A stretch of DNA of 64,000 bases from a virus (Duplodnaviria > Heunggongvirae > Uroviricota > Caudoviricetes), in IMG/VR virus record IMGVR_UViG_3300037487_000968, positions 141,280 to 205,279 of that record; one strand, written 5' to 3'. Made by a program: the position numbers and the translations under genes. Shown here piece by piece: positions 1 through 64,000 of this stretch. Every line of letters starts with the position of its first letter. The first letter of the stretch is position 1. The notes under the pieces are model-generated. The model saw nothing but the letters and a program-made list of their open reading frames with translations. It had not been told where the DNA came from and searched no databases.

Positions 1-181
1 AGGAACTTATAGAAACAAGCTAAAAGGTGAAATAACACTACGGTGTCCTAAGTCAGCGAACCAACATTAGAACCAAACCGGGCCAGGGGACACCTCTCGA
101 GCTGCAACAAGACTTGATAGATTCCACTTGCAGGTGGTGCTCTTTCTCGTCGGCTTGCTTCTATAAATACCCGATAAGTAT

Positions 182-270
182 TATATTGAAATACACTGTT
201 TGAGATGCACTGGAACGGGTCTCAATCCGGAACCTTACACTTGCCTTGCGGCACAATATACTTCAATATA
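182..270 (-). repeat. Imperfect inverted repeat (arms 182-198 and 252-270), copy 1 of a duplicated intergenic hairpin element
   Basis: Arms TATATTGAAATACACTG and CACAATATACTTCAATATA. On the minus-strand transcript every mismatch becomes a G-U wobble, giving a 17-bp stem. A second copy lies at 4856-4967. Confidence 0.5.
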
Positions 271-425
271 ACACTACAATAACTAAAGTGAAACACATTA
301 TGACCGGGCTGTTATACTCTCTACTAATACCACCAGGGTATTCGGGTCGTTAGTCCGACTTAGTTACCTATCAACTAATGTATCTCACTTTAGCTATCGT
401 ATGTGTTAATTATAATGCCTTTTAC

Positions 426-1079
426 TTACTCTGTCAACGGTTGTTCCTTACAATACCGTTCTATGTTTGCCCTTGCCTGTTGCTCCCACTTTGATCGGGC
501 AAAATCGGTGTGATAGATAAATTCGCGACAGGTTAGAAACTGCTTTAGGAAGGCAGCACTCTTCCCTTGATCTCTAGGATAGGAGCCACCATTCTCGTCA
601 ATAATGTTTATTTGGTTCTGGATAAAGTCTTCGTATGGAAGACAAAGTGAAAAGAGATCAGCATCAAGCAAGGTTCCCAGATCACCTCCTAGATCATCTA
701 CCATTCGCTTATTACTTAGATGAATTTCTATACAGGTATATAGAATCAGCTGTGCAGCCTTATCCACCACGACCATATTATCGGGTGTCAGGCTACGCCC
801 TGTTAAGAGAAGTGCAGCAGCAGAGCATCGTTCGTTAGCATCGGATCCAGCACCCGGAATATAGATAGCATCGTGCCAGTATGCTGCCAGAAGCAACTCT
901 GGTGATGCGTTTTCATCAATAACCTGAACACCCTTAACAACATTAAGAGCGTGGCCCCAATTATGGTAATGACGACTCTTCCAGTTGATATCATACCAAT
1001 ACTGTGCAGCAGTAGCAATGTCTTTCATTTTACTTTCCTTGCTGCCTGTGTTTTCCATCCTTCCAACCAGGCACACCAT
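426..1079 (-). CDS. HD-domain phosphohydrolase
   Basis: NWGHALNV (H) and AAYWHDAIY (HD) motifs characteristic of the HD superfamily. The true start may be the internal Met (MKDIAT). Confidence 0.5.
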   Translation of the reverse strand: MVCLVGRMENTGSKESKMKDIATAAQYWYDINWKSRHYHNWGHALNVVKGVQVIDENASPELLLAAYWHDAIYIPGAGSDANERCSAAALLLTGRSLTPDNMVVVDKAAQLILYTCIEIHLSNKRMVDDLGGDLGTLLDADLFSLCLPYEDFIQNQINIIDENGGSYPRDQGKSAAFLKQFLTCREFIYHTDFARSKWEQQARANIERYCKEQPLTE

Positions 1080-1239
1080 CTTGCTTGAGTCATTACATCT
1101 ACAAAATTTCTCAACAACTTCGGACCACCGCCCGGGCGTGGATCAACTATTAGTCTATCAGGAAACATAGAGCAATACTCGTTAAATGCCTTACGGCATA
1201 CCTTGAGTTCCTTTAATGATAAATCTGGAACATCTTCTT

Positions 1240-2637
1240 TCATTCTTCTACCTCAACCTTTTCCGGCTTGATAGCAGCAGCGAACTGAGCTTCAATCTCT
1301 GCGAAACTATCAGCAACTGTTTTGTCAGGCCGCGACTCAATCAACCGGGGCAGGAACAAAGAATGTTTCTTACCAGCCTTAGTGGAATACATAATACCAT
1401 TTGATCGGATGGTGACAATGCTGTTCATCCACTCGGCACGATTATTGTGTATTTCGTTCCGCAAGTCATCTGGGATACCCGAAGCATTGACCTCAAGCAG
1501 GCCGCAGCTACTCTGACAAGTAAGTGAGCCAAACAAGTGGGCAAACTTGTTTTTACCGGCGGTAAAACCTATTACTTCAAGCTCAACATCAACTACTTCC
1601 TTCTGCTTGACTTGATCCTTGCTTGTGCCATCCTTCCAGATAGCGTGGCGACTCTTACATACGGTGCCTTCCAGCTTACGCCTGCGAGCATCACGATAAT
1701 GTGCAAGTGCTTCATCGGGCGAATAAACAATCTTTGTTTCAATCAGCTGGATCTGAATAACATCAGTTCCTTGCAAGACAGGTTTCATTACCTGTTTTTC
1801 AAGCGATGTGTAACGTTCGTGATAAGAAACATTGTATTTGCCCTTAGAAACAAAAGCTTCTAATGGAATCTGATCCCAACAATCAAAAACAACAATCTCA
1901 CCTTCACCGAACGACCCACCTTTGGAAACAGAATTCAAAATCCCATTTCCAATTTGGCGTTCCAACATCACCCCGTTACGATACACAGTAAGTTCACCGT
2001 GTGTGCTCGTTCCATGTGTAAATGTTTTTGTGGCGGCAGCTTCAATGCCAAGCACATCCTGTGGCATCACTGTGCCGCCACGAGAAGTAATTTGAACAAA
2101 TCCGTCCTTGCTTACATTTACATAAGCAAACATTCCATCTGCTTTGATCTCTGAATACACGCCTTCGGAATAATCCCATTCTTCCATATTGGAAGATTCA
2201 GGAAGGCTACACCGCATATAAGGAGTGACAGGAATTTCATAATCCTTGTTTACACCTTTGACAGCTTTGTTCACAGTAGATTCTGAGAAGCCGCTGCCCA
2301 AATCTTTTATCAATAATTTTCGATACCAGCCATTCCATTGTTCATTAGTTGATCTCAACATAGACATATTGATTGCGTCCAACGCCGCATGACCTGTTAC
2401 CACACGATTGATCAACGCAAAGGCAAGTGTCTTAAACATAACAAATGGTAAACCAGCACCATCCGGCCCAGTACGAACCGGGACCTTCTTCACACCAAAG
2501 GTATCAATATTGTCTAAGGCGTACCTTAATCCAGCGAAAAATTCATCGTTGCCGGCTTGCGCTTCTCTGCGAATAACACCCTGTTTGAAGAGTTTGCTGT
2601 TGTCGGATGCGATTTCTGTAAGTAGTTGGTGTGTCAT
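1240..2637 (-). CDS. ATP-dependent DNA ligase (T4 gp30-like)
   Basis: 465 aa with nucleotidyltransferase motif I EIKADGMF (KxDG). Size and downstream motifs fit a DNA ligase rather than an RNA ligase. Confidence 0.7.
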   Translation of the reverse strand: MTHQLLTEIASDNSKLFKQGVIRREAQAGNDEFFAGLRYALDNIDTFGVKKVPVRTGPDGAGLPFVMFKTLAFALINRVVTGHAALDAINMSMLRSTNEQWNGWYRKLLIKDLGSGFSESTVNKAVKGVNKDYEIPVTPYMRCSLPESSNMEEWDYSEGVYSEIKADGMFAYVNVSKDGFVQITSRGGTVMPQDVLGIEAAATKTFTHGTSTHGELTVYRNGVMLERQIGNGILNSVSKGGSFGEGEIVVFDCWDQIPLEAFVSKGKYNVSYHERYTSLEKQVMKPVLQGTDVIQIQLIETKIVYSPDEALAHYRDARRRKLEGTVCKSRHAIWKDGTSKDQVKQKEVVDVELEVIGFTAGKNKFAHLFGSLTCQSSCGLLEVNASGIPDDLRNEIHNNRAEWMNSIVTIRSNGIMYSTKAGKKHSLFLPRLIESRPDKTVADSFAEIEAQFAAAIKPEKVEVEE

Positions 2638-2638
2638 A

Positions 2639-3073
2639 TTAAACCTTTAGATATGCGATGTGTTCTTTGATTGCGTGTTTTTGGTCAGGTGTCAGCTTAT
2701 CCCATACCATATTTGCAACAATGCGGCGATCATTGTATTCGTCATGTGCTTTCTTAAGATCTTTTAGATTTCGTTCAAGTGATTCGAGTTCCCATTCTTC
2801 TGTATTGTATGTAATGATATCATCAATATAGATTTTATTGGTATGATCTTCGCACTCGAATCTAACAGAAGGGCCTGTCTCAGTCAAAGATACATGCGTA
2901 GATACACCAAGGTGGCATGCCATTGCCTGAGCATCCATTAACCGTTTTGGGATGGTTGCTTTATACATTGCGATATGCTCAGCCTCATTTAATTCGTATT
3001 GTCTACGAATTTCAGCTTCTTCAGCTAAACGCTTTGCTCTGCGGCCGGTTGGGTCAATTACTTTTGTTGCCAT
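2639..3073 (-). CDS. hypothetical protein
   Basis: 144-aa ORF adjacent to the ligase, with a 1-nt gap and uniform coding texture. Confidence 0.45.
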   Translation of the reverse strand: MATKVIDPTGRRAKRLAEEAEIRRQYELNEAEHIAMYKATIPKRLMDAQAMACHLGVSTHVSLTETGPSVRFECEDHTNKIYIDDIITYNTEEWELESLERNLKDLKKAHDEYNDRRIVANMVWDKLTPDQKHAIKEHIAYLKV

Positions 3074-3113
3074 GTGTATATTATAGTTGATTCGCTATAA
3101 AGAGTCAACAGGA

Positions 3114-3332
3114 TTATAACAGCATTGTTAATCCAATACGCCGTATCTCATCAATACACTGTATTTCACAAATGCCTTCTGATGTATGCTTATCCATGTC
3201 AACCCAATCACTTTGATGAGTTGTCTCGTCGTCCACCCAACGATGTATAGCACCATTTGCATATACTTTGAAACAGCCTTCGTTAGTGTCAAGGTATGCA
3301 ATCTTTTCTACAAAATTGCTATGAATTTTCAT
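3114..3332 (-). CDS. hypothetical small protein
   Basis: 72-aa ORF. The 4-nt overlap with the next ORF suggests coupling. Confidence 0.3.
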   Translation of the reverse strand: MKIHSNFVEKIAYLDTNEGCFKVYANGAIHRWVDDETTHQSDWVDMDKHTSEGICEIQCIDEIRRIGLTMLL

Positions 3333-3535
3333 TTTACCTTCTTTGATTTCGGGAAATATCCTTCGGCAAGATCATCTGTGATCGAATTCATAAAGCGTGT
3401 CATACTTTCGACATCGCCGTGTGCCTGAAAGAACTTCTTTTTAGCACCATCGGCTAACCGTGTTACCTCAATGTGGAGATACTTATCGATGTCTTCAGTA
3501 ACTTCAAAATCAAACAGTGTCATCAATTTTTGCAT
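3329..3535 (-). CDS. hypothetical small protein
   Basis: 68-aa ORF in a coupled series. Confidence 0.3.
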   Translation of the reverse strand: MQKLMTLFDFEVTEDIDKYLHIEVTRLADGAKKKFFQAHGDVESMTRFMNSITDDLAEGYFPKSKKVK

Positions 3536-3962
3536 TTTCAGCCTTTAGTTTTCTAAGTCTTAAAACTTCTTTTGTTTCACCTTTGCTCTTCTTACCATTG
3601 CAAGGAGAACACATAAGTTGAGCATTGGATAAATTATCTGCACCGCCCAAAGCCCTGGCGAGCTTATGGTCATGGGTGAATAAAACATCTTCGTCTTCAC
3701 GCACACCATATAGGTTAAGGTGCCAGGCCATCTGCCCAGGTGATTGTTCCACCGCAAAGAATGTTCCTTCCAATCCGCAGCATACACACTTCATTCCTTT
3801 AGATGCTGCCCGAGCAAATGTTTTCATTCGCAGCGAGGATACACCTACCCAGATGCCGGATGGTCTTTGGATACGAGCTCGTTTTTCTTTCCAATGTGCT
3901 TTCACATCGGGTATGATTTCGGAGATCGGTATTACTTCAGATCGAAGGTATCTTTGTGTCAT
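3510..3962 (-). CDS. HNH homing endonuclease
   Basis: C-terminal FTHDHKLARALGGADNLSNAQLMCSPCNGKK is a canonical HNH motif. A Cys-rich Zn motif CVCCG lies upstream. Confidence 0.65.
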   Translation of the reverse strand: MTQRYLRSEVIPISEIIPDVKAHWKEKRARIQRPSGIWVGVSSLRMKTFARAASKGMKCVCCGLEGTFFAVEQSPGQMAWHLNLYGVREDEDVLFTHDHKLARALGGADNLSNAQLMCSPCNGKKSKGETKEVLRLRKLKAENAKIDDTV

Positions 3963-4089
3963 GTTGCTATTATAACGCAGATTGATATAAAGATAAAATG
4001 AGTAGGCAGTTATACATCCAGTCTTTTAACCACACGGCCTATCCCAACCATACGCGATGGCCTCTTGATTTAATGGGTCATAGTGGTAC

Positions 4090-4632
4090 CTACTCAAACT
4101 TAAAATAGTTGAAGTGATCTTCTAAATTCCATGTTTCCTGATTGATATCAACATTATCATGTGTCTGTAATTTAATATTCAGAACATTGTATCTCTTAAA
4201 GAAATTCCAATAATCTGGCGTAGAAGATGTAAGACCATTCTTCCTTAGTAAGGCATCGTTTGCTTTACTGATTAAACAGGTTGGAATATTCATTGCTTGT
4301 TTAGCATCAAATACACCTTTAATAAGAAGATCTCGAGCCTTGCTGGCAGGAATGACATGCTCAAAGATACAACTCTTGATATCAGTTCCTACTTCTTTAT
4401 AATGTGCTCCAATGCTTGCTTGCACCCTATATCCGTGATATCTTCTTAGCCAATGATCAATTGCATCACGCATAAGACGAAGTGTCTGCGTGCCACCACC
4501 GAGATGATATGCTTCTACAAGCCGATCAATTTCTCTTATAGTAATTACGCTCGACTCTTCATAACATTCGGGTCCGCGACGAACCCTTGAGTAAGGAGTA
4601 TCAACATAATTCTTTAAGGATGCTTCAAGCAT
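4090..4632 (-). CDS. hypothetical protein
   Basis: 180-aa ORF with no recognisable motif. Confidence 0.45.
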   Translation of the reverse strand: MLEASLKNYVDTPYSRVRRGPECYEESSVITIREIDRLVEAYHLGGGTQTLRLMRDAIDHWLRRYHGYRVQASIGAHYKEVGTDIKSCIFEHVIPASKARDLLIKGVFDAKQAMNIPTCLISKANDALLRKNGLTSSTPDYWNFFKRYNVLNIKLQTHDNVDINQETWNLEDHFNYFKFE

Positions 4633-4640
4633 ATTTAATA

Positions 4641-4841
4641 CTACCGATCACCTTCGAATGCAGCTTCAGCAGCCATCACTAAATTGTCATATCCGATGTC
4701 ATACAATTCGGCAGGATCCAACTCATTCAGCTCTTCTTCTGTCATATCAAGTCCGTCATCCCAGCAACCTTCTGTAGCATAGAAGCCATCATCCATGTCG
4801 CCTTCGACTACGACACTATTCCAATCAACTTTTTTACTCAT
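4641..4841 (-). CDS. hypothetical acidic small protein
   Basis: 66 aa, very acidic. AGGAG Shine-Dalgarno sits 8 nt upstream of the ATG, immediately downstream of hairpin element copy 2. Confidence 0.45.
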   Translation of the reverse strand: MSKKVDWNSVVVEGDMDDGFYATEGCWDDGLDMTEEELNELDPAELYDIGYDNLVMAAEAAFEGDR

Positions 4842-4855
4842 AGTTTACTCCTGTG

Positions 4856-4967
4856 TATCATATTGAAATACACTGGCAATACTGAGGAGCCAGTTCCGCA
4901 GGCAAATACGAGTTCTCGTAGATGAATGCACCTGGAGCCATTTTCAAACCAATATACTTCAATATGA
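4856..4967 (-). repeat. Copy 2 of the duplicated intergenic hairpin element (arms 4856-4875 and 4949-4967)
   Basis: Carries the same arm sequences as 182-270. A shared downstream motif ACCGGGCTRTTA also appears in both copies, at about 311 and 5020. Confidence 0.5.
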
Positions 4968-5281
4968 TAACAAATAAAAGTGTTCTGGCGACTCCACCAC
5001 AAAGTCCCAGAACCGGGCTATTAATCCATTCATCTAATATCTGTCACGTTTGGGCAAATTAGAAATGCCCTGCGATTTTCCCAGGCTCCCCTAATTGGGG
5101 ACTATGAGGCAGATCGTAAGCGCCCGGCAGTTCTGGTTTACTGCCTAACCCACTTTGACATAACGGAGTAAGTGTATTCCGGGTTAATCTTCGCCGTTCA
5201 CAAACTTTGCAGTCCATTCAGCAGCTTCTTCAAATTCGGCCCAGGATTCCCTGAACCATTTTTTAATCATTCCCCACATTT

Positions 5282-5485
5282 TTATTTTGAAGAACTTGTA
5301 TCTTGTTCAAATAACCGTTCTTCATATTCCTCTTGTGATAAAGAATGACTTCCGTCACAATAACCTGTGGTACTGCGACCGCAGCCACACGGTTGCTTGT
5401 GGTCTGTGCCAAAAATCATATCCCATCTTTGTGCGTATTCTTCGTTTGAAACACTACGCGGTCTTACCCAACTGCCTTTACTCAT
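5282..5485 (-). CDS. CDGSH-type iron-sulfur/zinc-finger-like small protein
   Basis: CGCGRSTTGYCDGSH resembles the CxCx2Sx3PxCDGSH signature of mitoNEET-type domains but is one residue shorter. Confidence 0.4.
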   Translation of the reverse strand: MSKGSWVRPRSVSNEEYAQRWDMIFGTDHKQPCGCGRSTTGYCDGSHSLSQEEYEERLFEQDTSSSK

Positions 5486-5650
5486 TATTATGTTATCCTT
5501 AAAAACTAAAAATTTGATATGAACGGCTAGATGCTTACCCTGAGAAAGGATTTATCGGCACGCCAGCATCTGTCTTGCCACTAATCCAAAGTGATCAATC
5601 CTTTGGGAATTAGGAAGAAAAGTCTCGGTTACTTATTCTTCATACCAAAA

Positions 5651-5756
5651 TTTTATATTAGAACACATTCACGCAGGAGTTGTCTACCTACTTGGCCCTA
5701 TATGGGTGGATCGATCCGAGTGCCAGCTGGACACCCAAGTGTGTTCTAATATAAAA
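5651..5756. repeat. 16-bp perfect inverted repeat (TTTTATATTAGAACAC / GTGTTCTAATATAAAA) flanking a 74-nt loop
   Basis: Exact reverse complements at 5651-5666 and 5741-5756, inside a 600-bp noncoding gap (5486-6085). Confidence 0.6.
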
Positions 5757-6085
5757 CCTATAATGCTTGGATCCGCCGGTGGTAATTGTACCAGATCAAA
5801 CCCTTTCGGGTCATCACACCTGGCCTCCACCCACTCCTCGTCACGGTCCATTATCGTATTGCCAACGCACTTTGCACCAAAGTGTAAGGTCCTGTAGTAA
5901 TCATCCTACTTCTCATCTTCCGGACCAGAATAGCAGTTGATTAGACTGCACGTCCAATTATATAAGGGCATTTAGCCTACATAAGAGCCCATCCTAGTGT
6001 AGCGGTATCCGGTCAATTAGTGGGTCGACGGACCATCCAGAGTTTTTTCACCACAACCTAATAGGTACTCTGCATTCTTACAAAT

Positions 6086-6478
6086 TCACGGCCACTGCAA
6101 AACAACGTCGCCGTCCTTCAGAGGAAGTGTTGCCTTCCACGAATTAGTATTCACGAGGATACGATTGTATCCATTATTTTCCATATTCCAACGAAGTATT
6201 TCTTCCTTCGGATCATTCCGGGCAACAACTTCTTCCAGCGTCTCGACCTTGCCGCCCAAGTAATACATAGGCGAAGTCTTAGTAATCTTGCTATCGAGCT
6301 CTTCGTCCTTGCGGGTCCGAGTGCTGAAGTAAAAACCATATGGTGTAGCACCGTGACGTTCTTTGATTCTTTTAGCCATTTCCTTGGCTGCATCGACATC
6401 CCAACTTTCGATAGGGGATTCGGATGTTTCGGAAACAAATGTTCCCGGAGAGCAAAAAGTGACAAAATGTTTTTTCAT
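6086..6478 (-). CDS. hypothetical protein
   Basis: 130-aa ORF. The overlapping 104-aa alternative-frame ORF was rejected. Confidence 0.4.
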   Translation of the reverse strand: MKKHFVTFCSPGTFVSETSESPIESWDVDAAKEMAKRIKERHGATPYGFYFSTRTRKDEELDSKITKTSPMYYLGGKVETLEEVVARNDPKEEILRWNMENNGYNRILVNTNSWKATLPLKDGDVVLQWP

Positions 6479-6508
6479 ACTACTCTTTCTAAATACCTAC
6501 TTCAAACT

Positions 6509-6593
6509 TGGTGCGGCTGGCCGGACTCGAACCGGCACACCTTTCGGCGAGAGATTTTAAGTCTCTTGTGTCTACCAATTTCACCACAGCCGC
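6509..6593 (-). tRNA. tRNA-Leu (anticodon TAA), class II with long variable arm
   Basis: The reverse complement folds as a cloverleaf: GCGGCTG acceptor stem, anticodon loop CTTAAAA, TTCGAGT T-loop, encoded CCA, 85 nt. Confidence 0.75.
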
Positions 6594-6637
6594 TATTCTC
6601 TAATAAGTATTTATTATATACTTACTTATCGTGCCTG

Positions 6638-6973
6638 TCAATAAAGGCCTAGCATATCCATTTCATCTTCAATTGCAGCGGCAACAGTTTCCTTTAATTG
6701 CCGCGGGTCGGTAATCACGACCTCTACAATTTTGTCTGCCAGCTTTTCGCGACCATTCAAATATGCCTGGAGCCGACCAGCAGCAATAGTGCGGCCAACC
6801 TTCTTATTGAAAACATCACCCGGGTTGCAACGAGCAATGGTAATCAGCACCTTGTTGTTATCAGCAGGGAGAATAGCAACTGTGGCACCGCCGCGTGAAC
6901 TGATTTCTTCAGAATCACCCCAGCCACCAGCGTCATTAAAGGCCCGATAATGCATAAATTGAATATTGTTCAT
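6638..6973 (-). CDS. hypothetical protein
   Basis: 111-aa ORF. Confidence 0.4.
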   Translation of the reverse strand: MNNIQFMHYRAFNDAGGWGDSEEISSRGGATVAILPADNNKVLITIARCNPGDVFNKKVGRTIAAGRLQAYLNGREKLADKIVEVVITDPRQLKETVAAAIEDEMDMLGLY

Positions 6974-7032
6974 TGTAGTTCCTATGTTGTGTAATGTCTA
7001 AAATGTTATTATACAGTGTATAGGCTATGCTG

Positions 7033-7458
7033 TCAATTGTCGCCTATGATTAACCTGCCGTATTTTTTGTGAAAGTTATCAAAATTATCTAATAGTATAG
7101 GTTCTATCGGCATTCGATGTTGAACAAGAATACACTTTATACACAATAATGGAAAAATATTTTCACTTATTGTTGATGGCACAGCTCGGACTGTAGTATC
7201 GTAATCATAACCTAAACCGACAAACGATACAAATTCTTTCCTTGATTCAGCAAATGGCTTTGTTAAGGCAAATTCGGTGTCAATATAGGCAAGCAAAATA
7301 TCAAATACAACATGACATGGGTGTGGTATTCGAAACGTATCGGGTTGTAAACCAGGGTGATTCTTTTGCCACGCCCAACCCTCGGCAGGTTTGATAGCAT
7401 CCTTTGTGGCAATGACATCATCCATTAGTTTCAGTAAAGTGATATATTTTTGATTCAT
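7033..7458 (-). CDS. hypothetical protein
   Basis: 141-aa ORF. Confidence 0.4.
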   Translation of the reverse strand: MNQKYITLLKLMDDVIATKDAIKPAEGWAWQKNHPGLQPDTFRIPHPCHVVFDILLAYIDTEFALTKPFAESRKEFVSFVGLGYDYDTTVRAVPSTISENIFPLLCIKCILVQHRMPIEPILLDNFDNFHKKYGRLIIGDN

Positions 7459-8427: not shown

Positions 8428-8504
8428 TGGTGGGTCGGGAGGGACTCGAACCCCCAATCAACAAATTATGAGTTTGCTGCCTTAACCAATTTGGCCACCG
8501 ACCC
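8428..8504 (-). tRNA. tRNA-Met (anticodon CAT), elongator type, or Ile2 if lysidinylated
   Basis: Cloverleaf with G1-C72 pair, anticodon loop CTCATAA, T-arm GGGGGTTCGAGTCCCTC, encoded CCA, 77 nt. Confidence 0.75.
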
Positions 8505-9394: not shown

Positions 9395-9471
9395 TGGCCT
9401 GACCGGAGGGACTCGAACCCCCGACCTACAGCTTAGAAGGCTGTTGCTCTATCCAGTTGAGCTACGGTCAG
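9395..9471 (-). tRNA. tRNA-Arg (anticodon TCT)
   Basis: Acceptor CTGACCG/CGGTCAG, D-arm GCTCAACTGGATAGAGC, anticodon stem ACAGC/GCTGT with loop CTTCTAA, encoded CCA. The T-arm is identical to that of tRNA-Met. Confidence 0.75.
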
Positions 9472-9607
9472 AGAATTTAATTAAGAAAGCCGGCCGCAAA
9501 CGGAATGTAAACAAGACACCATTGCTGGGGAAGATAAATTACACTTACCAACACTGCGGTAGTAAATCGTTTAATAGATTGCATGATAGCTCCTTAGTGT
9601 TTATATT

Positions 9608-9644
9608 ATAACAAAAGACGAAGGGACTGTCAACCAGTCCCTTC
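9608..9644 (-). terminator. Intrinsic terminator hairpin (GAAGGGACTG..CAGTCCCTTC) followed by T-tract
   Basis: 10-bp GC-rich stem, then CTTTTGTT on the minus strand, downstream of the 9675-9893 gene. Confidence 0.5.
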
Positions 9645-9893: not shown

Positions 9894-9972
9894 AATTTTC
9901 CTTTGTGTAATGTAAACTATAGACTATTTACCATTATATTGTAGTATATTAATTGATGTCGGTCAATCAGCT

Positions 9973-10350
9973 TCAATGTAATGTTGGTAAAGTTTCTTCG
10001 TGGTCGATATTAATCAATCCTCCCTGTTGAGAGATATCAATAAGGTGATTGGTGAGATTTTTGTATGAATCGTTGAGTTCTCGTTCATTCCGTAGGATCA
10101 TACGAAGAATATTTCGGCAATGCTCTGGAGAAATATCCTGCACTTGCAGCATTTCTCCAGCTTCATTAAACCAAATTTCTTCTGGAAATACCTTACCATC
10201 CAGTGCAGTATAGGTTTTATGTTCCTGCCATTGTACCTTGAAGCCAGTATTATCGGGCAGTTCCTGTACCTCGATCACATATTTGTGTGAATTGACTATA
10301 GGTCTTACAAGTTCTTCAAGTTCTTCGTATGTTCCGACTTCTTGTTTCAT
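9973..10350 (-). CDS. hypothetical protein
   Basis: 125-aa ORF. Its start overlaps the stop of the HFGVE-family gene by ATGA. Confidence 0.45.
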   Translation of the reverse strand: MKQEVGTYEELEELVRPIVNSHKYVIEVQELPDNTGFKVQWQEHKTYTALDGKVFPEEIWFNEAGEMLQVQDISPEHCRNILRMILRNERELNDSYKNLTNHLIDISQQGGLINIDHEETLPTLH

Positions 10351-10556: not shown

Positions 10557-10846
10557 TTAACTACCTTATTCTTTCCACAAGTACATTGGCGCCCTTGGTT
10601 ACAGTCGTGATTACAACCGGTCTTGCACCACTCTACAAGTTTAAGCCAAAATGCCAACAAATTAGCTTTCATCTTGCCTCTCCTTTGAATCTTTCTTTTG
10701 GGCCTGTCTTTCAGACTTCCAAAAGATTCGTTTCCAATCTCTTAAATGTTTCCACCACTGCGGTGCAGGAGTGAGTTGTCCTTGTCTTTTTTGAGCCATA
10801 ATGTATTATAATAATAATTAGTGCTAATGTCAAAGTTCCGGAGATC

Positions 10847-11068
10847 TTATTCATTAGTTTGTTTTTCAAACTCTTCATCTCTTGCTTGATCGTATAAGTA
10901 ATCACCATATGCGGCCCAGCGTTCCGGGATTGGATTTCCGCCTACGTCATATCGACCGCTCGTAGATACATTTCCGTTGACATCATAATATTCATCATCG
11001 ACGTCTTGGATTTCTATTTGTTTTTTCATATCGACTCCTATATTAACTATATTATAAAAGATAGACAA
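10847..11068 (-). CDS. hypothetical protein
   Basis: 73-aa acidic ORF. Confidence 0.35.
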   Translation of the reverse strand: MSIFYNIVNIGVDMKKQIEIQDVDDEYYDVNGNVSTSGRYDVGGNPIPERWAAYGDYLYDQARDEEFEKQTNE

Positions 11069-11208
11069 CTATCTGTCAACTGATGTATTTATTATATTGG
11101 GTTTGATATGAAATGGATTTCACCAAGATCAAGTCTGCTCGTGTTGCCTGATCGCAACAATGATTCTTATAGAGTGGAACTCGACTACCGTTTCTATTGA
11201 TTGTTGGT

Positions 11209-20487: not shown

Positions 20488-20522
20488 TATTTACCAAAAT
20501 AAAAGCACCCGAAGGTGCTTTT
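20488..20522 (-). terminator. Intrinsic terminator (AAAGCACC-TTCG-GGTGCTTT) with flanking T/A runs
   Basis: Perfect 8-bp stem with a tetraloop, then TTTTATTTTGG on the minus strand, downstream of the 20524-21108 gene. Confidence 0.55.
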
Positions 20523-20523
20523 A

Positions 20524-21108
20524 TTAGTGTGCCGGGCCTGTTGGCTGCGGTAAAACTTTGATTAACTCATCCGGCCAACCTAAGTAAAACCTCCACTCTT
20601 CATCTCTGATATGGATGGGTAAAGTCTTACGTTTGGCAAGAATTTCATAATAAGTAGGCTTGTAAGGCTTCTTCTTAGGTACAATAGTCTTATCAGCACC
20701 TTTATCGCTGTTGCATGTCTTACAAGAAGTACATACATTCAACCAATTAGTCTTACCACCATGCGATTTAGGTACCACATGGTCCAGTGTTAATTCAACA
20801 AGCTTCACCTTACCCTTAGCATCTTTACACCGGCTTGTAGTTTGAAGCTGGCAGGTAAAATCATCCCGCAAATAAACATTGGAACGACTGTACTTGAGAT
20901 TTTTGCTCCACTTAACATGCTCAGTCATGATAACAATAGATGGGACTTTCATTTCTAAGTGTTGAGATCTAACAACCCAACTTTCGTAAGATTTTAGAAC
21001 CTTCACTTTGCCTAAAAACATCAGCCGCATGGCTACTTGCCATGATACAACCGAAAGGGGTACATGGGATAGTGGTGTGCCATCGCTGTTAAGTATTAGT
21101 GTGTCCAT
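20524..21108 (-). CDS. HNH homing endonuclease
   Basis: LDHVVPKSHGGKTNWLNVCTSCKTCNSDKG motif. Forms a tandem pair with the HNH gene at 20022-20483. Confidence 0.65.
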   Translation of the reverse strand: MDTLILNSDGTPLSHVPLSVVSWQVAMRLMFLGKVKVLKSYESWVVRSQHLEMKVPSIVIMTEHVKWSKNLKYSRSNVYLRDDFTCQLQTTSRCKDAKGKVKLVELTLDHVVPKSHGGKTNWLNVCTSCKTCNSDKGADKTIVPKKKPYKPTYYEILAKRKTLPIHIRDEEWRFYLGWPDELIKVLPQPTGPAH

Positions 21109-21860: not shown

Positions 21861-23069
21861 CTACCTTTTGCTTTGCGGGGAATGACTATCTGGCTCATAC
21901 CAGGCAGTCATACCAAACGGCGCAACAATACTACGTTTCGCATCACCGTGTATAAGGAACAGTGTATCGCAGTACAAAGGATCGCCCCAACCACCACAAG
22001 GATAACCATCAGTCATCATAATGAAACGTTCTGGCTCGATATTGTTTTCCTTCATATATGTCCAGTTGCATTCGAAACTTGTGCCACCACCACCCTTGAT
22101 TTCGTAATCATCAATCTCATCAATTGTATCCGGTGTAAACTTGGCATGATTATAAACCTTTGTATCAAAGCACCAGACTTCTAATTCGAAGTCAGTAAAT
22201 TGCTGCATGATACCTTTGGTTTCACTCAGCAAGTCCCTGAGCATATCATCGCCCATAGAACCCGAACAGTCAATTGAAACTGCTGCCTTAACTTTAACAT
22301 CTTCTTTGGTGCCTGGGAGATAGATACCACTTGCTTGACTTTTACGCGAGCAACGGCTCCATGTAAAATCATTCTTAATCATGGATTGAATCTTCATGTT
22401 AAGGATCTCACGCCAATCCATTTGTGGCTCAACCAAATCTTTCAAGAGACGCTTAACACCACCCGGTGTATTACCTGCACCGGCAGATTTAGCAGCCTGC
22501 ATAACCGCAGCTCTGATTTCGTCTGAAAGGTTGCGTTGTTCTTCCTCAGTCATCGGCTCGCCTTTACCATCCCCTGGTTCAAGGTGGATGTCGAATTCGG
22601 GCCAATTGCTGTTTGGATCCTTCAGCAACAGTTCATACACTTCCTCTGCGAACATGCCTTTATACTTTGCATCGAAGCAGGCCTGCACACCAGATGTCTT
22701 TGGATCTGGAAGTTTGCCAATATTGTGTTCGTGGAGTTCATAGTTGATAACAAAGTCTGCTGCCGCGTTCCACATTTTGGGCTTGCGACCTCCACGACGA
22801 CTCATGTGATCATAAACACAGTGTTCAACTTCGTGTGCTACCAAGAAGATACACTCTTGTTTATTAAGTTTTGAAATGAAATCGCGATTGTAGTAGAAAT
22901 AACGACCATCAGTTCCAGCAGTTTTGCACCATGGCTGATCGGTAGCATCTCTTAAAATTAAACGAGTTGCAAGTGTACCCCAAAATGGTTGCTGGAGTAG
23001 TAGAGAAATACGTGCCCGGATAATCTGTTCCAGGACCGCTTCGGGGCTGGTATCTGTTGCTGCTGCCAT
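21861..23069 (-). CDS. von Willebrand factor A domain protein (CobT-like partner of the CobS-like ATPase)
   Basis: MIDAS motif VSIDCSGSMG (DxSxS) in a 402-aa protein, located next to the MoxR/CobS-type ATPase gene. Confidence 0.55.
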   Translation of the reverse strand: MAAATDTSPEAVLEQIIRARISLLLQQPFWGTLATRLILRDATDQPWCKTAGTDGRYFYYNRDFISKLNKQECIFLVAHEVEHCVYDHMSRRGGRKPKMWNAAADFVINYELHEHNIGKLPDPKTSGVQACFDAKYKGMFAEEVYELLLKDPNSNWPEFDIHLEPGDGKGEPMTEEEQRNLSDEIRAAVMQAAKSAGAGNTPGGVKRLLKDLVEPQMDWREILNMKIQSMIKNDFTWSRCSRKSQASGIYLPGTKEDVKVKAAVSIDCSGSMGDDMLRDLLSETKGIMQQFTDFELEVWCFDTKVYNHAKFTPDTIDEIDDYEIKGGGGTSFECNWTYMKENNIEPERFIMMTDGYPCGGWGDPLYCDTLFLIHGDAKRSIVAPFGMTAWYEPDSHSPQSKR

Positions 23070-39773: not shown

Positions 39774-40631
39774 ATGTATTTAGCATACACTTATTTAATC
39801 ACAAATAAAATTACCCATCAATTTTATTATGGATCTCGTTATCAAAATATAAAATTAAAAAGAACGCCGGAACAAGATCTTTGGATATTTTATTTTACTT
39901 CATCAAAAGAAGTAAAGAAATTATTAAAAGAATACAATAAAGATTTATTCGAAATATCTATAGTATTCAAATCCGAAAACTACGATGAATGTTACTGGCA
40001 GGAACAAGATCTAATAAAAGAAAATATAATAAATCCTTTGTGTATGAATCTGACATATACTGATAAATCAGCAGGAAGGCACATATTTTCAATGGCAGGT
40101 AAAACTCGATCCGAAGAAGCCTGTAAAAAATCATCAATCTCATTAAAGGCGTATCATGAGAATGAACCAGCTGATGTTAAAGCAGCAAGATTCGCTCTCC
40201 AGAAAGCCGCGTGGAATAGAAGATCGGAGGAATCGGAAATTGAACGCATTGATAAAATGATATTTTCTCGTAATAATAAGACAGAAGAAGAAAAATTAGT
40301 TATGTCGAGAAATAGAAGGATAGCCCAGACAGATAGAGTGGAAGAAGCTAAGTTGATTTCTGTTTTCCGACAAAAAGAGACAAAAGCAAATTGGTCTCCC
40401 GAAAAGAGAGAAGCATTTATAAATAAAGTGAAATCTTGTGTTAATAAGGGTAATGCTAAAGGTGGGACATACCAGATCACTGATCCGGCCGGTAATACAT
40501 ATATTATTGTTAGTTTAAGTAAATTTTGTAGAGAAAATAATCTACCATTTGATTCAATGAGAGGTATTGCTGCAGGAACCCAAAAGTGTTGTAAAAATCA
40601 TCCAGGTTGGCGATTACATAAACTTGACTGA
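39774..40631 (+). CDS. GIY-YIG homing endonuclease (Seg/I-TevI-like, free-standing)
   Basis: N-terminal YTYLITNKITHQFYYGS matches the GIY-x10-YIG core (compare I-TevI GIYQIKNTLNNKVYVGS). NUMOD-like repeats and a C-terminal DNA-binding tail follow. The gene is AT-rich and on the opposite strand. Confidence 0.7.
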   Translation: MYLAYTYLITNKITHQFYYGSRYQNIKLKRTPEQDLWIFYFTSSKEVKKLLKEYNKDLFEISIVFKSENYDECYWQEQDLIKENIINPLCMNLTYTDKSAGRHIFSMAGKTRSEEACKKSSISLKAYHENEPADVKAARFALQKAAWNRRSEESEIERIDKMIFSRNNKTEEEKLVMSRNRRIAQTDRVEEAKLISVFRQKETKANWSPEKREAFINKVKSCVNKGNAKGGTYQITDPAGNTYIIVSLSKFCRENNLPFDSMRGIAAGTQKCCKNHPGWRLHKLD

Positions 40632-62008: not shown

Positions 62009-62016
62009 TATTTATA
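62009..62016 (-). promoter_or_regulatory. Candidate T4-type late promoter TATAAATA
   Basis: Exact octamer on the minus strand 22 nt upstream of the 61987 ATG, immediately after the tail-fibre terminator. Confidence 0.4.
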
Positions 62017-62047
62017 GAAAAGGCCCCGAATTCGGGGCCTTTTCTTT
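62010..62047 (-). terminator. Intrinsic terminator (AAAAGGCCCCGAATTCGGGGCCTTTT)
   Basis: Perfect 9-bp GC-rich stem flanked by A- and T-runs, 20 nt downstream of the tail-fibre gene stop. Confidence 0.6.
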
Positions 62048-62067: not shown

Positions 62068-64000
62068 TTAGCTTTGAGCTACTTGGTATGTGAATATCAC
62101 TTTGCATGTCGATCCCGATGTTGCGCCTGTACCTGCAACAGTAGCGTTAACTTGCTCGCTTGCACCAATTGTAAAGAATGTTTCAGCCATATACATACCT
62201 GCAGTTTGTGTATCATTCTCTGCAGTTGTCATGAATGCTGCTACGCCATCAGTGGCAGTACCAACAGATAATGTTGCAGCCGAATCAGGTGTTGTAACAA
62301 TAACCTTAACAGAAAGAACTGTTGCACCTGCTGGTATAAGAGTACCAATTGCTACGGTAGCATTTGTTGCCAAAGAAACTGTAGCTTGGAAAGACTTAAT
62401 AGCACCAGCGGACGCACCAGCAGCAATAGCATGATCAACATAGTATTTGTTGGTTAATGCTGTATCAATTGTTGCAATTGCGCCAGCATATGATGCTGCT
62501 GTTTGACCGGCTACATCAACATAGCTAAGTGCTGTAGGACTTAAAACAACATTTCCTAATATCGATTGTAATGTTAATACTGTGTTACCGATAACACTAA
62601 GTGGTGTGCCTGCATCTGATTGGATAACACCGCTGCCGGCTGGTCCAATAACAACTGTACCATCGCCGTTTGGCATAAGAACAATGCTTGAATTAGTATC
62701 TAATGAAGTAAGTGTTACATTTAGACCTGATGGACTGGTGCCTGTTTCTAAAGTAGCACCAGTAGAACCACCAATTTCTAATAAACCAGTTCCTGCTGCT
62801 GGTGTAAATTTAAATAACGAGCTCGATTCTAATGATGATTCTCCACCATACAGCAACTGATTAGCAGGAACTGATGTTAAGCCAGTACCACCGTGTGCTA
62901 CGTCAACTGTCTTAAGCGAAACTGCACCTGCTGTAGTACTGAAAGAAGCTGTATTGAAGCTTGCAACACCTTTTAATGTTGTTGATGCACTTTGAACTGT
63001 TACACTATATGTACCTGTATCTACCGATGTGAATACACCCTGGTCCGAATCGCCCACGATCACCAATGTATCGCCTAGTACTATTTCACCAGTCCCAGAG
63101 TCAGCATTTAAAGTAAATCCATCATTCACAAGCATAGCATTTGTTACACCTGTTGCAGCAATACCTAACGCAGAACCTGTTGCCTGTGTAAGGCCGCCGC
63201 CTGATACAAGAGCCAATGCCAACTGTCCGCCAAGTCCACTTGTATTAAGAGCACTCCCGGTTACTATGTCTAAGGTAATATCATTACCTTCAGTAGTTGT
63301 AAGACCAGCACCTAAGTTTGCGTCAATTACTGTACCAGCGACTGTAACACCAGTACCACCACTGTATGCACCAGCACCTGAGAACTGTACCCAGTTTTGA
63401 TAATTACCAGGCTCGCCCATGTTAACTAAATAATGATTAGACTGAACCCAGCCGGTATTAGCAAAAGTAGTACCTTCTAATATGAAAATAGAAGCACCGA
63501 CTAACTCTGTATATACATCGGCATCGCTCGAACGTGTGAGAGTGTAGGCATATGATCCAGGTGTTCCAGTCACTGTAGCAACATAAATACCTTCTTCGGC
63601 ATGATCTGTTTGGGCAGTTAATAGAATTCGATATCCGGTATTTGTAGTGTCAAGAACAGGGTGACCATCAATTACAAGATTGGTACCAGTTAATGGAACA
63701 TTTACATTAGATAATAATTCAGCTGCTTGTTTCCAAGTTAATCCGCTAACCTGATTATCAACATATTGTTTTGAAGCTGCTGCTGTTGGTCCCGATGGTA
63801 GTGCAGGAAGACCTAATACTTCACCACCGCCAACGAATGTTAAATTCGCTGCAGATGCCATTGAATCACCGGCAACATTCACATATGTAGCATCTACTAA
63901 TGCTGTGATATCAGATGTAACGACTGCTGTTGTACCAGTAACACGACCGTATGTATCACGAGCAACTTTAACGAAAGAACCAGTACCTGAATCAGAAACT
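62068..64000 (-). CDS. Tail-fibre-like structural protein (5' end truncated by the window edge)
   Basis: Gly/Thr/Ser/Ala-rich beta-type composition with GGTG-containing repeats. The frame stays open upstream of the GTG at 63882 through to position 64000. Confidence 0.55.
   Translation of the reverse strand, partial: VSDSGTGSFVKVARDTYGRVTGTTAVVTSDITALVDATYVNVAGDSMASAANLTFVGGGEVLGLPALPSGPTAAASKQYVDNQVSGLTWKQAAELLSNVNVPLTGTNLVIDGHPVLDTTNTGYRILLTAQTDHAEEGIYVATVTGTPGSYAYTLTRSSDADVYTELVGASIFILEGTTFANTGWVQSNHYLVNMGEPGNYQNWVQFSGAGAYSGGTGVTVAGTVIDANLGAGLTTTEGNDITLDIVTGSALNTSGLGGQLALALVSGGGLTQATGSALGIAATGVTNAMLVNDGFTLNADSGTGEIVLGDTLVIVGDSDQGVFTSVDTGTYSVTVQSASTTLKGVASFNTASFSTTAGAVSLKTVDVAHGGTGLTSVPANQLLYGGESSLESSSLFKFTPAAGTGLLEIGGSTGATLETGTSPSGLNVTLTSLDTNSSIVLMPNGDGTVVIGPAGSGVIQSDAGTPLSVIGNTVLTLQSILGNVVLSPTALSYVDVAGQTAASYAGAIATIDTALTNKYYVDHAIAAGASAGAIKSFQATVSLATNATVAIGTLIPAGATVLSVKVIVTTPDSAATLSVGTATDGVAAFMTTAENDTQTAGMYMAETFFTIGASEQVNATVAGTGATSGSTCKVIFTYQVAQS

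Follow-up and report, generated by a model that had tools for sequence, protein, structure and literature searches.

The tRNA cluster of phage T4 carries, among its tRNA genes, the small stable RNAs rnaC (species 1) and rnaD (species 2), which are still unexplained, and a role of RNase III in the processing of this cluster has been reported. The processing stems of the E. coli rRNA operons and the early RNase III sites of phage T7 are further precedents, in which stems of at least about 20 bp, formed by sequences flanking a functional RNA, lie in several similar copies per genome between the mature RNAs or genes of polycistronic transcripts. In bacterial chromosomes, Correia/NEMIS elements and other miniature inverted-repeat transposable elements (MITEs) combine terminal inverted repeats of about 20-26 bp with a short interior, and Correia repeats, if transcribed, form hairpins that are cut by RNase III. 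In T4-type phages, the promoter-early stem-loop (PeSL) is a short stem-loop repeated in plastic early regions, where it frames exchangeable cassettes. The bacterial Y RNAs YrlA and Yrn1, which are bound by Ro60/Rsr, pair their 5' and 3' ends in a long conserved stem that closes the module. The focus of this report is a hairpin element present in two copies in 64,000 nucleotides of viral DNA (Caudoviricetes; positions 141,280 to 205,279 of IMG/VR record IMGVR_UViG_3300037487_000968), a stretch referred to below as the window. Its stem recurs as the terminal stem of a large family of units in phage tRNA arrays, and this stem is under selection as RNA on the strand of the tRNAs and genes.

The family has traits in common with all of these systems, but it fails the defining features of the rRNA and T7 stems, the Correia MITEs, the Y RNAs and the T4 stable RNAs. 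Like the RNase III stems, it pairs sequences on either side of an RNA, and the second window copy lies between open reading frames (ORFs) as a T7 site does. In contrast to them, its stem sequence is conserved far beyond the known needs of RNase III, it encloses more than 150 kinds of RNA of 25-165 nt, and an internal loop of the T7 type is missing. The T4 stable RNAs are likewise small RNAs without an explained function among phage tRNA genes, and the fold of rnaC is tRNA-like, with a T-arm next to its 3' strand as in the tRNA-like subset of the units; however, they are not multi-copy and have no conserved long terminal stem. As in PeSL cassettes, a consensus early-type promoter precedes the first window copy and an adjoining hairpin, and the cassette at this place differs in a relative. 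Unlike PeSL, the arms of the family include no promoter, and they frame RNAs rather than ORFs.

Two window hairpins and a family of terminal stems

On the plus strand of the window, the arm ATATTGAAATACACTG is found at 183-198 and 4860-4875 and its partner CAATATACTTCAATAT at 254-269 and 4950-4965, both identical in the two copies. As minus-strand RNA, the 16-nt core of either copy forms 13 Watson-Crick and three G.U pairs with no mismatch, whereas the same three positions are A.C or C.A mismatches in plus-strand RNA. The wobbles are G9.U, U12.G and U14.G in both copies, and they form on the strand of the three tRNAs of the window. The complete unit of copy 1 spans 177-275 (minus strand) and consists, on the RNA, of a 5' arm at 269-254, an interior of 55 nt at 253-199 and a 3' arm at 198-183, with a stem lengthened by AGUGUU/AAUACU to about 22 bp. 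Copy 2 (about 4851-4973, minus strand; 5' arm 4965-4950, interior of 74 nt, 3' arm 4875-4860) has a longer stem extension and takes the shape of a rod-like extended hairpin. Both copies fold more stably on the minus strand, with -36.5 kcal/mol (z -4.8) against -24.7 (z -3.2) for copy 1 and -48.0 kcal/mol (z -6.0) against -35.6 (z -3.6) for copy 2. A preliminary description of this DNA had located the arms of copy 1 at 182-198 and 252-270 and had proposed G-U compensation specific to one strand; its positions prove accurate to within 1-2 nt, and both the pairing and the unequal folding of the two strands agree with it.

Within the window, the exact arm 16-mer occurs at these two sites only, and with up to three mismatches there are five matches against 1.7 expected. 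Copy 2 is kept in the relatives L002 and L036 with identical arms, its interior differing by one substitution in L002 and by none in L036. Far more copies lie elsewhere. An exact scan of IMG/VR with one arm returned 41 loci, and in about 15 of these the partner arm lies at a distance of 45-121 nt; the paired-arm pattern ATATTGAARYAC-N(49-79)-GTRTTTCAATAT matched at least 120 loci. A census of 161 sampled loci (1.43 Mb with 1,735 tRNA genes; interiors searched between 25 and 200 nt) comprises 256 units in 130 loci, 212 of which are distinct, and up to 10 units are packed into 4 kb at one locus. Almost all units lie inside phage tRNA arrays, and 242 of 254 are on the majority tRNA strand. They are carried by contigs of uncultivated phages, 4 kb to 524 kb in size, whose proteins are only 25-60% identical, and yet the arms are identical.

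The consensus reads 5'-RCC AUAUUGAARYACAUUN ... N'AGUGURUUUCAAUAU GGU-3', a stem of about 19 bp in which the wobbles U14.G and G9.U are nearly invariant. Because the search patterns prescribe the 5' arm from position 1 to 12 and the 3' arm from 5 to 16, conservation is free of search bias only in the remaining four positions of each arm (13-16 and 1-4, respectively) and in the flanks. Among these, stem position 13 is A-U in 98%, position 14 is U.G in 84% and C-G in 11%, and position 15 is U-A in 96%, while position 16 is fully covarying, with A-U in 65, G-C in 51, C-G in 24, U-A in 18, U.G in 18 and G.U in 14 of the 212 units. The flanks pair as C-G at -1 (81%) and -2 (75%) and as A-U (54%) or G.U (19%) at -3, and the CC flank is missing in about 20% of the family. 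In a covariation test on 81 distinct stems, 95.8% of cells are paired, and double changes affect 14 of the 19 pairs, in 133 cells; the observed covariation score exceeds that of all 500 shuffles, and registers slid by 1-3 columns leave just 30-51% of cells paired. Covariation of the innermost pair links the two arms of one unit but not those of adjacent units, which shows that the arms pair across the interior as drawn and rules out pairing of a 3' arm with the 5' arm of the next unit. A CRISPR or TIGR-like array is ruled out as well, the arms being inverted and not direct and the units 75-150 nt long.

The strand of the structure follows from a criterion that is independent of the stems. When units are oriented solely by the strand of the neighbouring tRNAs, 353 G.U pairs stand against 29 A.C; by unit, G.U predominates in 179 and A.C in 3 (p=3e-49). 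Recurrence of the arms in at least 130 viral loci, this bias and the covariation together support what the preliminary description had suspected, namely selection for an RNA structure on the gene strand; further copies of the arms abound, and related phages show no free drift of the arms. Its notion of a duplicated element holds for the arms, which are identical, but not for the interiors of the two copies, which are unrelated to each other; the copies are separate members of a family with many copies. A hairpin as such would also fit a chance inverted repeat or an intrinsic terminator, an idea of negligible probability which is excluded by the recurrence and the covariation and by the lack of a U-tract and of a GC-rich stem. 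The stem is AU-rich, neither copy is among the terminator-like sites found in the window, and the absence of a U-tract after either 3' arm (3' flanks AAUACUUAUCGGG and GAUACACAGGAG) makes intrinsic termination unlikely.

The two window copies deviate from the family consensus at one position of the 5' arm and at none of the 3' arm. Their flanks are GUU/AAU in copy 1 and AUC/GAU in copy 2 in place of the RCC...GGU of the family, and no tRNA is adjacent; in both respects they are atypical, displaced family members.

The family is apparently uncatalogued. Among 185,579 bacterial and archaeal genomes (GTDB), the paired-arm pattern matched just three contigs, all from metagenome-assembled genomes (MAGs) of lakes, so the element is not host-encoded. 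No carrier was found among cultured phages (INPHARED) by megablast or blastn of the window and of an array, or with a 38-nt arm palindrome at E<=10. The phage of the window has no close cultured relative: neither megablast of window positions 1-6000 nor blastn of 1-500 against 50,697 phage records gave any match. In Rfam 15, the window (at the gathering threshold and at E<=5) and seven array loci (at E<=1) yielded only tRNAs and noise; no family covers the units, and neither window copy has a match at either setting. Full-text literature searches returned no description of the terminal-stem family. An IMG/VR catalogue of candidate structured RNAs may include some of the units, and the portion of that article considered here does not describe the shared stem (PMC10690425).

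Boundaries, turnover and contents of the units

The limits of the units coincide with the ends of mature RNAs: 71 units start exactly at A76 of a tRNA called by ARAGORN, and the last nucleotide of 25 immediately precedes +1 of a tRNA. Where the upstream RNA is not a tRNA, it finishes with a helix and NCC in 58% of cases, compared with 26% in shifted controls. Within the arrays, a conserved non-tRNA RNA of at least about 85 nt, which closes with a hairpin of loop UUUAGGG and then NCC, stands directly before a unit (L131 1020-1104, L100 404-488 and the relatives L058, L064 and L123); we read it as another uncatalogued RNA family. Furthermore, ARAGORN reports 'tRNA-???' genes of 86-91 nt with a two-base anticodon (ta) at L014 12431-12517, L027 502-592 and L026 1151-1239. 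The first two lie 7-8 nt upstream of a unit whose interior of about 120 nt is conserved between both contigs, and the third has a different unit, with a 62-nt interior, 55 nt downstream.

Units are gained and lost singly. Between the related contigs L152 and L054, and between L102 and L048, single units are precisely present or absent at the CC| boundary, and in L044 and L095 one unit of a tandem pair has been lost or gained. One of the cases of gain or loss looks like unequal crossing-over between arms. In L131 versus L063, the insertion is flanked by the 8-nt direct repeat ATACCATA, and no target duplication is seen in the other four empty-site pairs. The window itself provides a case, since positions 174-388, which include copy 1 and the adjoining hairpin at 275-401, are exchanged in the relative L036 for a different RNA of 117 nt with a T-arm, bounded by a conserved consensus promoter and conserved downstream sequence. 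Genes for HNH homing endonucleases occur in or near the arrays at 26 loci.

This turnover raises the possibility of an element that acts at the DNA level, MITE-like or a recombination cassette, the 19-bp arms being the terminal inverted repeats of a small mobile or recombination-prone module. Such a module would move about inside phage tRNA arrays and from one array to another, and the excess of G.U would reflect no more than selection against disturbing the tRNA transcripts in which it sits. This account is compatible with an RNA role. The precise presence or absence of units, the single 8-nt repeat, the case resembling crossing-over, the exchange in L036, the HNH genes and the identity of arms between phages with diverged proteins are all in its favour, and the architecture of the units, their copy number and their presence/absence polymorphism are those of Correia/NEMIS elements and other bacterial MITEs. 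It is nevertheless an unlikely account. There is no transposase or recombinase among the commonest neighbour families, target-site duplications are inconsistent, and the interiors fall into 158 unrelated clusters, unlike MITE families with their homologous interiors. Unit boundaries fall on mature RNA ends to the nucleotide, 95% of units are co-oriented with the tRNAs and show the G.U excess given above, and the family resides in phages and not in bacterial chromosomes, the three lake MAG contigs apart.

A second DNA-level account, a hairpin of single-stranded DNA resembling an integron attC site or an IS200/IS605 end, would use one strand in recombination or replication and tolerate G.T pairs. 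attC sites have a conserved stem and a variable top, and the tops of 40-120 nt and the total length of the family units are similar; units come and go as cassettes, and the strand asymmetry by itself fits RNA and single-stranded DNA alike. However, the commonest neighbours include neither an integrase nor a HUH transposase, and the uninterrupted stems lack both extrahelical bases and the GTTRRRY/RYYYAAC boxes. That units abut A76 and +1 of tRNAs exactly speaks for the RNA level. We regard this account as very improbable.

The interiors are 25-165 nt long, in most units about 40-120 nt. As many as 121 of their 158 clusters are singletons, the largest recurs in 20 loci, and recurrent ones are conserved across contigs, although variation within clusters is too small for interior covariation to be informative. 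T-loop motifs are present in 29 of 212 interiors against 4.4 expected. About 86% of the modules have no T-loop, among them both window copies, which are not tRNA-like modules with D- and T-arms; ARAGORN finds only the three known tRNAs in the window. A single unit, L018 2619-2713, reaches the Rfam gathering score for tRNA. Here the acceptor stem is formed by the inner 7 bp of the long stem; U8, a D-arm and a T-arm come after it, and the anticodon region is replaced by 39 nt. With ARAGORN thresholds set to 85%, three to four units appear tRNA-like, inconsistently.

Genes for RNA repair adjoin the arrays, including T4-type RNA ligase 1 (Rnl1), RtcB beside a Metallophos phosphoesterase, PTP-SAK phosphatase and R2K ATP-grasp proteins, with examples at L015 1243-2148, L106 4378-6184 and L019 2099-3324. 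The Metallophos phosphoesterase is the commonest neighbour family (37 loci). The neighbour scan covered 48 distinct window ORFs, the 20 commonest neighbour clusters and the RtcB locus, together with the top 25 of the 92 families in 111 further neighbour ORFs; among these it returned genes of RNA repair and DNA metabolism only, and no RNase III, TROVE or other double-stranded RNA (dsRNA)-binding family.

Such contents and neighbours would suit a protein-binding scaffold comparable to Y RNAs, in which the stem is the handle for one phage or host protein and the modules act as baits, tethers or decoys, for example against host defences that target tRNAs. The conservation of sequence beyond pairing, including the near-fixed U.G wobble at an unconstrained position, is in line with it, as are the excess of T-loops and the use of the inner stem as acceptor in the unit that scores as tRNA. 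As in Y RNAs, paired ends close the module with a long conserved stem, some units mimic D- and T-arms, and RNA-repair genes (RtcB, RNA ligase) form the setting; the order of D-arm and T-arm, with the long stem in acceptor position, matches D. radiodurans Yrn1 (PMC4201824). The Ro-binding motif in the stem of Y RNAs is GNCGAAN0-1G or GGUCCGA (PMC4201824). Unlike Y RNAs, the family has no such motif: the GNCGAAN0-1G of YrlA is absent, and the arm reads UUGAAG. No Y RNA family scored in Rfam, no TROVE/Ro60 gene was found among the ORFs scanned and no candidate partner protein among the scanned neighbours, and most modules are not tRNA-like. All in all we consider a scaffold of this kind doubtful. 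Somewhat less probable still is its strongest version, in which the 19-bp stem would be a universal handle for a phage or host protein, and the more than 150 modules, tRNA mimics included, a library of decoy or tether RNAs issued from tRNA arrays; such a library could possibly soak up or redirect tRNA-targeting defence nucleases or RNA-repair enzymes. Neither the MITE-like nor the scaffold account is exclusive of a role in RNA processing.

A possible role in the processing of small RNAs

Our preferred reading, which we put forward tentatively, is that the stem may be a shared terminal element that helps to process and stabilise small RNAs released from polycistronic phage transcripts. By pairing both ends of a module, it would create an autonomous domain that resists exonucleases, keep the module from misfolding with neighbouring tRNAs, and position the cuts which free the module and its neighbours from the precursor. 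RNase P could make the cut at the 3' side, where the U at -1 fits. Cutting at the 5' side, at or within the stem, could fall to an enzyme specific for double strands, such as RNase III, or to another endonuclease, such as RNase E. The 5' arm of a typical unit starts at A76, either of a tRNA lying upstream or of a tRNA-like RNA that ends in helix-NCCA, and the 3' arm finishes at -1 of the next RNA. In the window, copy 1 and the hairpin at 275-401 might instead form a stand-alone non-coding transcript from a consensus sigma-70 promoter, the canonical context having been lost, and copy 2, which sits in the 5' leader ahead of a 66-aa ORF, could serve as a hairpin for processing or stabilisation. 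The stems of both copies are continuous over at least 22 bp, G.U included, and thereby offer the about two dsRNA turns free of Watson-Crick interruptions that characterise an RNase III site.

The observations establish the structure and its strand, the family with its covariation, where units sit with respect to mature RNA ends, and the gain and loss of modules. The transcription of the units, the nuclease and the function are inferred, and processing of the stems by RNase III in particular is a hypothesis. Several points weigh against the proposed role. The transcription and cleavage of the units are predictions, and much of the arm conservation in the census stems from the search patterns themselves. 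RNase III is not strongly sequence-specific, which leaves the near-constant stem sequence across such distant phages unexplained. Many tRNA-tRNA junctions in the same arrays measure 1-10 nt and have no unit, so that the stem is not needed for tRNA maturation in general. The window copies, which have neither RCC/GGU flanks nor adjacent tRNAs, may differ in role from the core of the family.

Phage tRNA arrays are commonly taken for lists of tRNA genes, but in a wide set of uncultivated phages they contain another abundant class of small-RNA genes, recognisable by one shared terminal stem around more than 150 different cores. This stem offers a sequence handle for large-scale RNA finding, a processing substrate and a bait for a binding protein. 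It bears on the role of non-tRNA stable RNAs in phage tRNA clusters, T4 species 1 and 2 among them, and on the gain and loss of cassettes in phage tRNA arrays. If the modules were decoys in a conflict over tRNA cleavage, they would add a new layer of phage counter-defence, and a decoy library would be a modular RNA chassis with no described phage counterpart.

Surroundings of the window copies

Nearly all ORFs of the window and its three tRNA genes (Leu 6509-6593, Met 8428-8504 and Arg 9395-9471) are on the minus strand. The gene content includes a DNA polymerase, a flap endonuclease, HNH and GIY-YIG homing endonucleases, a QueE-like enzyme and a DNA ligase with 42% identity to those of Pseudomonas phages phiK7B1 and nickie, and the first 12 kb are rich in non-coding sequence. 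Copy 2 is placed before the 66-aa ORF at 4641-4841 (minus strand), the first gene of a run to the DNA ligase and phosphohydrolase genes, whose ribosome-binding site follows the hairpin directly. The end of its core 3' arm (4860) is 8 nt ahead of the AGGAG Shine-Dalgarno sequence of this ORF (4841-4641), the stem extension GAUA occupies the first four of these 8 nt, and the Shine-Dalgarno sequence is unpaired.

Two more hairpins of the window are probable diverged family members, judging from their arms. The first, at 275-401 (minus strand), lies directly 5' of copy 1 on the same transcript, with arms at 401-376 and 300-275 and an interior of 75 nt. Its 26-nt arms are 85% complementary, and its folding energy is -50.3 kcal/mol as minus-strand RNA and -33.4 as plus-strand RNA. 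Of the 16 consensus positions, 13 are matched by its 3' arm TAATGTGTTTCACTTT, and the 5' arm carries compensating changes. The second, at 5651-5756, has perfect arms of 17 bp (UUUUAUAUUAGAACACA / UGUGUUCUAAUAUAAAA) around an interior of 72 nt and folds at -42.7 kcal/mol (z -4.7). Both arms show a compensatory swap of positions 6 and 7 when set against the consensus AUAUUGAAACACA. It is listed on the minus strand, but its strand is ambiguous because the stem is perfect, and it is absent from the relatives L002 and L036. In a position weight matrix (PWM) scan of the window, the arms of these two hairpins rank next after copies 1 and 2, although each arm alone is within the shuffle range (sub-threshold), and for this reason they are called probable members. 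In L002 and L036, about 70-200 nt take the place of the 1.3 kb at window positions 5186-6502, which contain the hairpin 5651-5756 and an ORF at 6086-6478, so that the segment is hypervariable between conserved flanks.

A perfect sigma-70 consensus promoter, TTGACA-17-TATAAT, matches at all 12 of 12 positions at 409-437 (minus strand) and is kept in L036; a transcript from it would begin a few nucleotides before the hairpin 275-401 and copy 1. Folded together, these two reach -83.2 kcal/mol (z -6.6) as minus-strand RNA, whereas the plus strand gives -57.4. The preliminary description had reported a box, ACCGGGCTRTTA, downstream of both copies and shared by them. The box is present at both sites, but it is not a part of the element. 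As ACCGGGCTGTTA (plus strand; UAACAGCCCGGU on the RNA), it lies at 303-314 inside the interior of the hairpin 275-401, and as ACCGGGCTATTA at 5012-5023 (plus strand), 47 nt 5' of copy 2 on the RNA, where about 30 nt around it resemble the box region of copy 1. The window contains two such boxes against 0.33 expected, and 5 of 100 shuffles reach two. The box is limited to this phage and two close relatives and is found upstream of only 4 of 256 family units, which indicates local paralogy or chance and not a family feature.

Just beyond the window start, L036 carries at 1980-2160 (minus strand) the T-arm-like motifs GGGGTTTCGAGTCCCC and TCCGGTTCAAGACCGGA within about 500 nt that have no ORFs, and none of this sequence is called as tRNA. 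The first 176 nt of the window are probably part of an array of tRNA-like non-coding RNAs.

Other perfect TTGACA-17-TATAAT promoters are found on the minus strand at 6613-6641, 7008-7036, 9605-9633, 10805-10833 and 11051-11079, which together with 409-437 makes six in 12 kb, all on the gene strand; their density suggests a very strong early region dependent on the host polymerase. The last of them (11079-11051) is spanned by an inverted repeat at 11024-11113, with 20-nt arms that are 80% complementary, 50 nt apart and unrelated to the family. HNH endonuclease ORFs lie on the minus strand at 3510-3962, 20524-21108 and 21861-23069. A SegE-like GIY-YIG ORF on the plus strand (39774-40631) runs opposite to almost all other genes, as is typical for free-standing homing endonucleases.

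A covariance model, R1, built from the stems with a 4-nt loop, gave window matches at E 0.6-9, which carry no meaning since the model is unable to span interiors of 55-74 nt and missed both true copies. A short intergenic hairpin at 20492-20529 (minus strand) has family-like arms (CACUAAUAAAAGCAC.../...GUGCUUUUAUUUUGGUA) with almost no interior, and its covariance-model E of 0.62 is not significant. Another hairpin, at 9932-9983, just past the stop of the ORF 9973-10350, has the arm ATATTGTAGTATATTA, which scores 13 bits on the family PWM, and an interior of 26 nt; its strand is ambiguous. Finally, a perfect 15-bp palindrome with no spacer (AGAAAAGGCCCCGAA/TTCGGGGCCTTTTCT) at 62016-62045, downstream of the ORF 62068-63882, looks like a bidirectional terminator.

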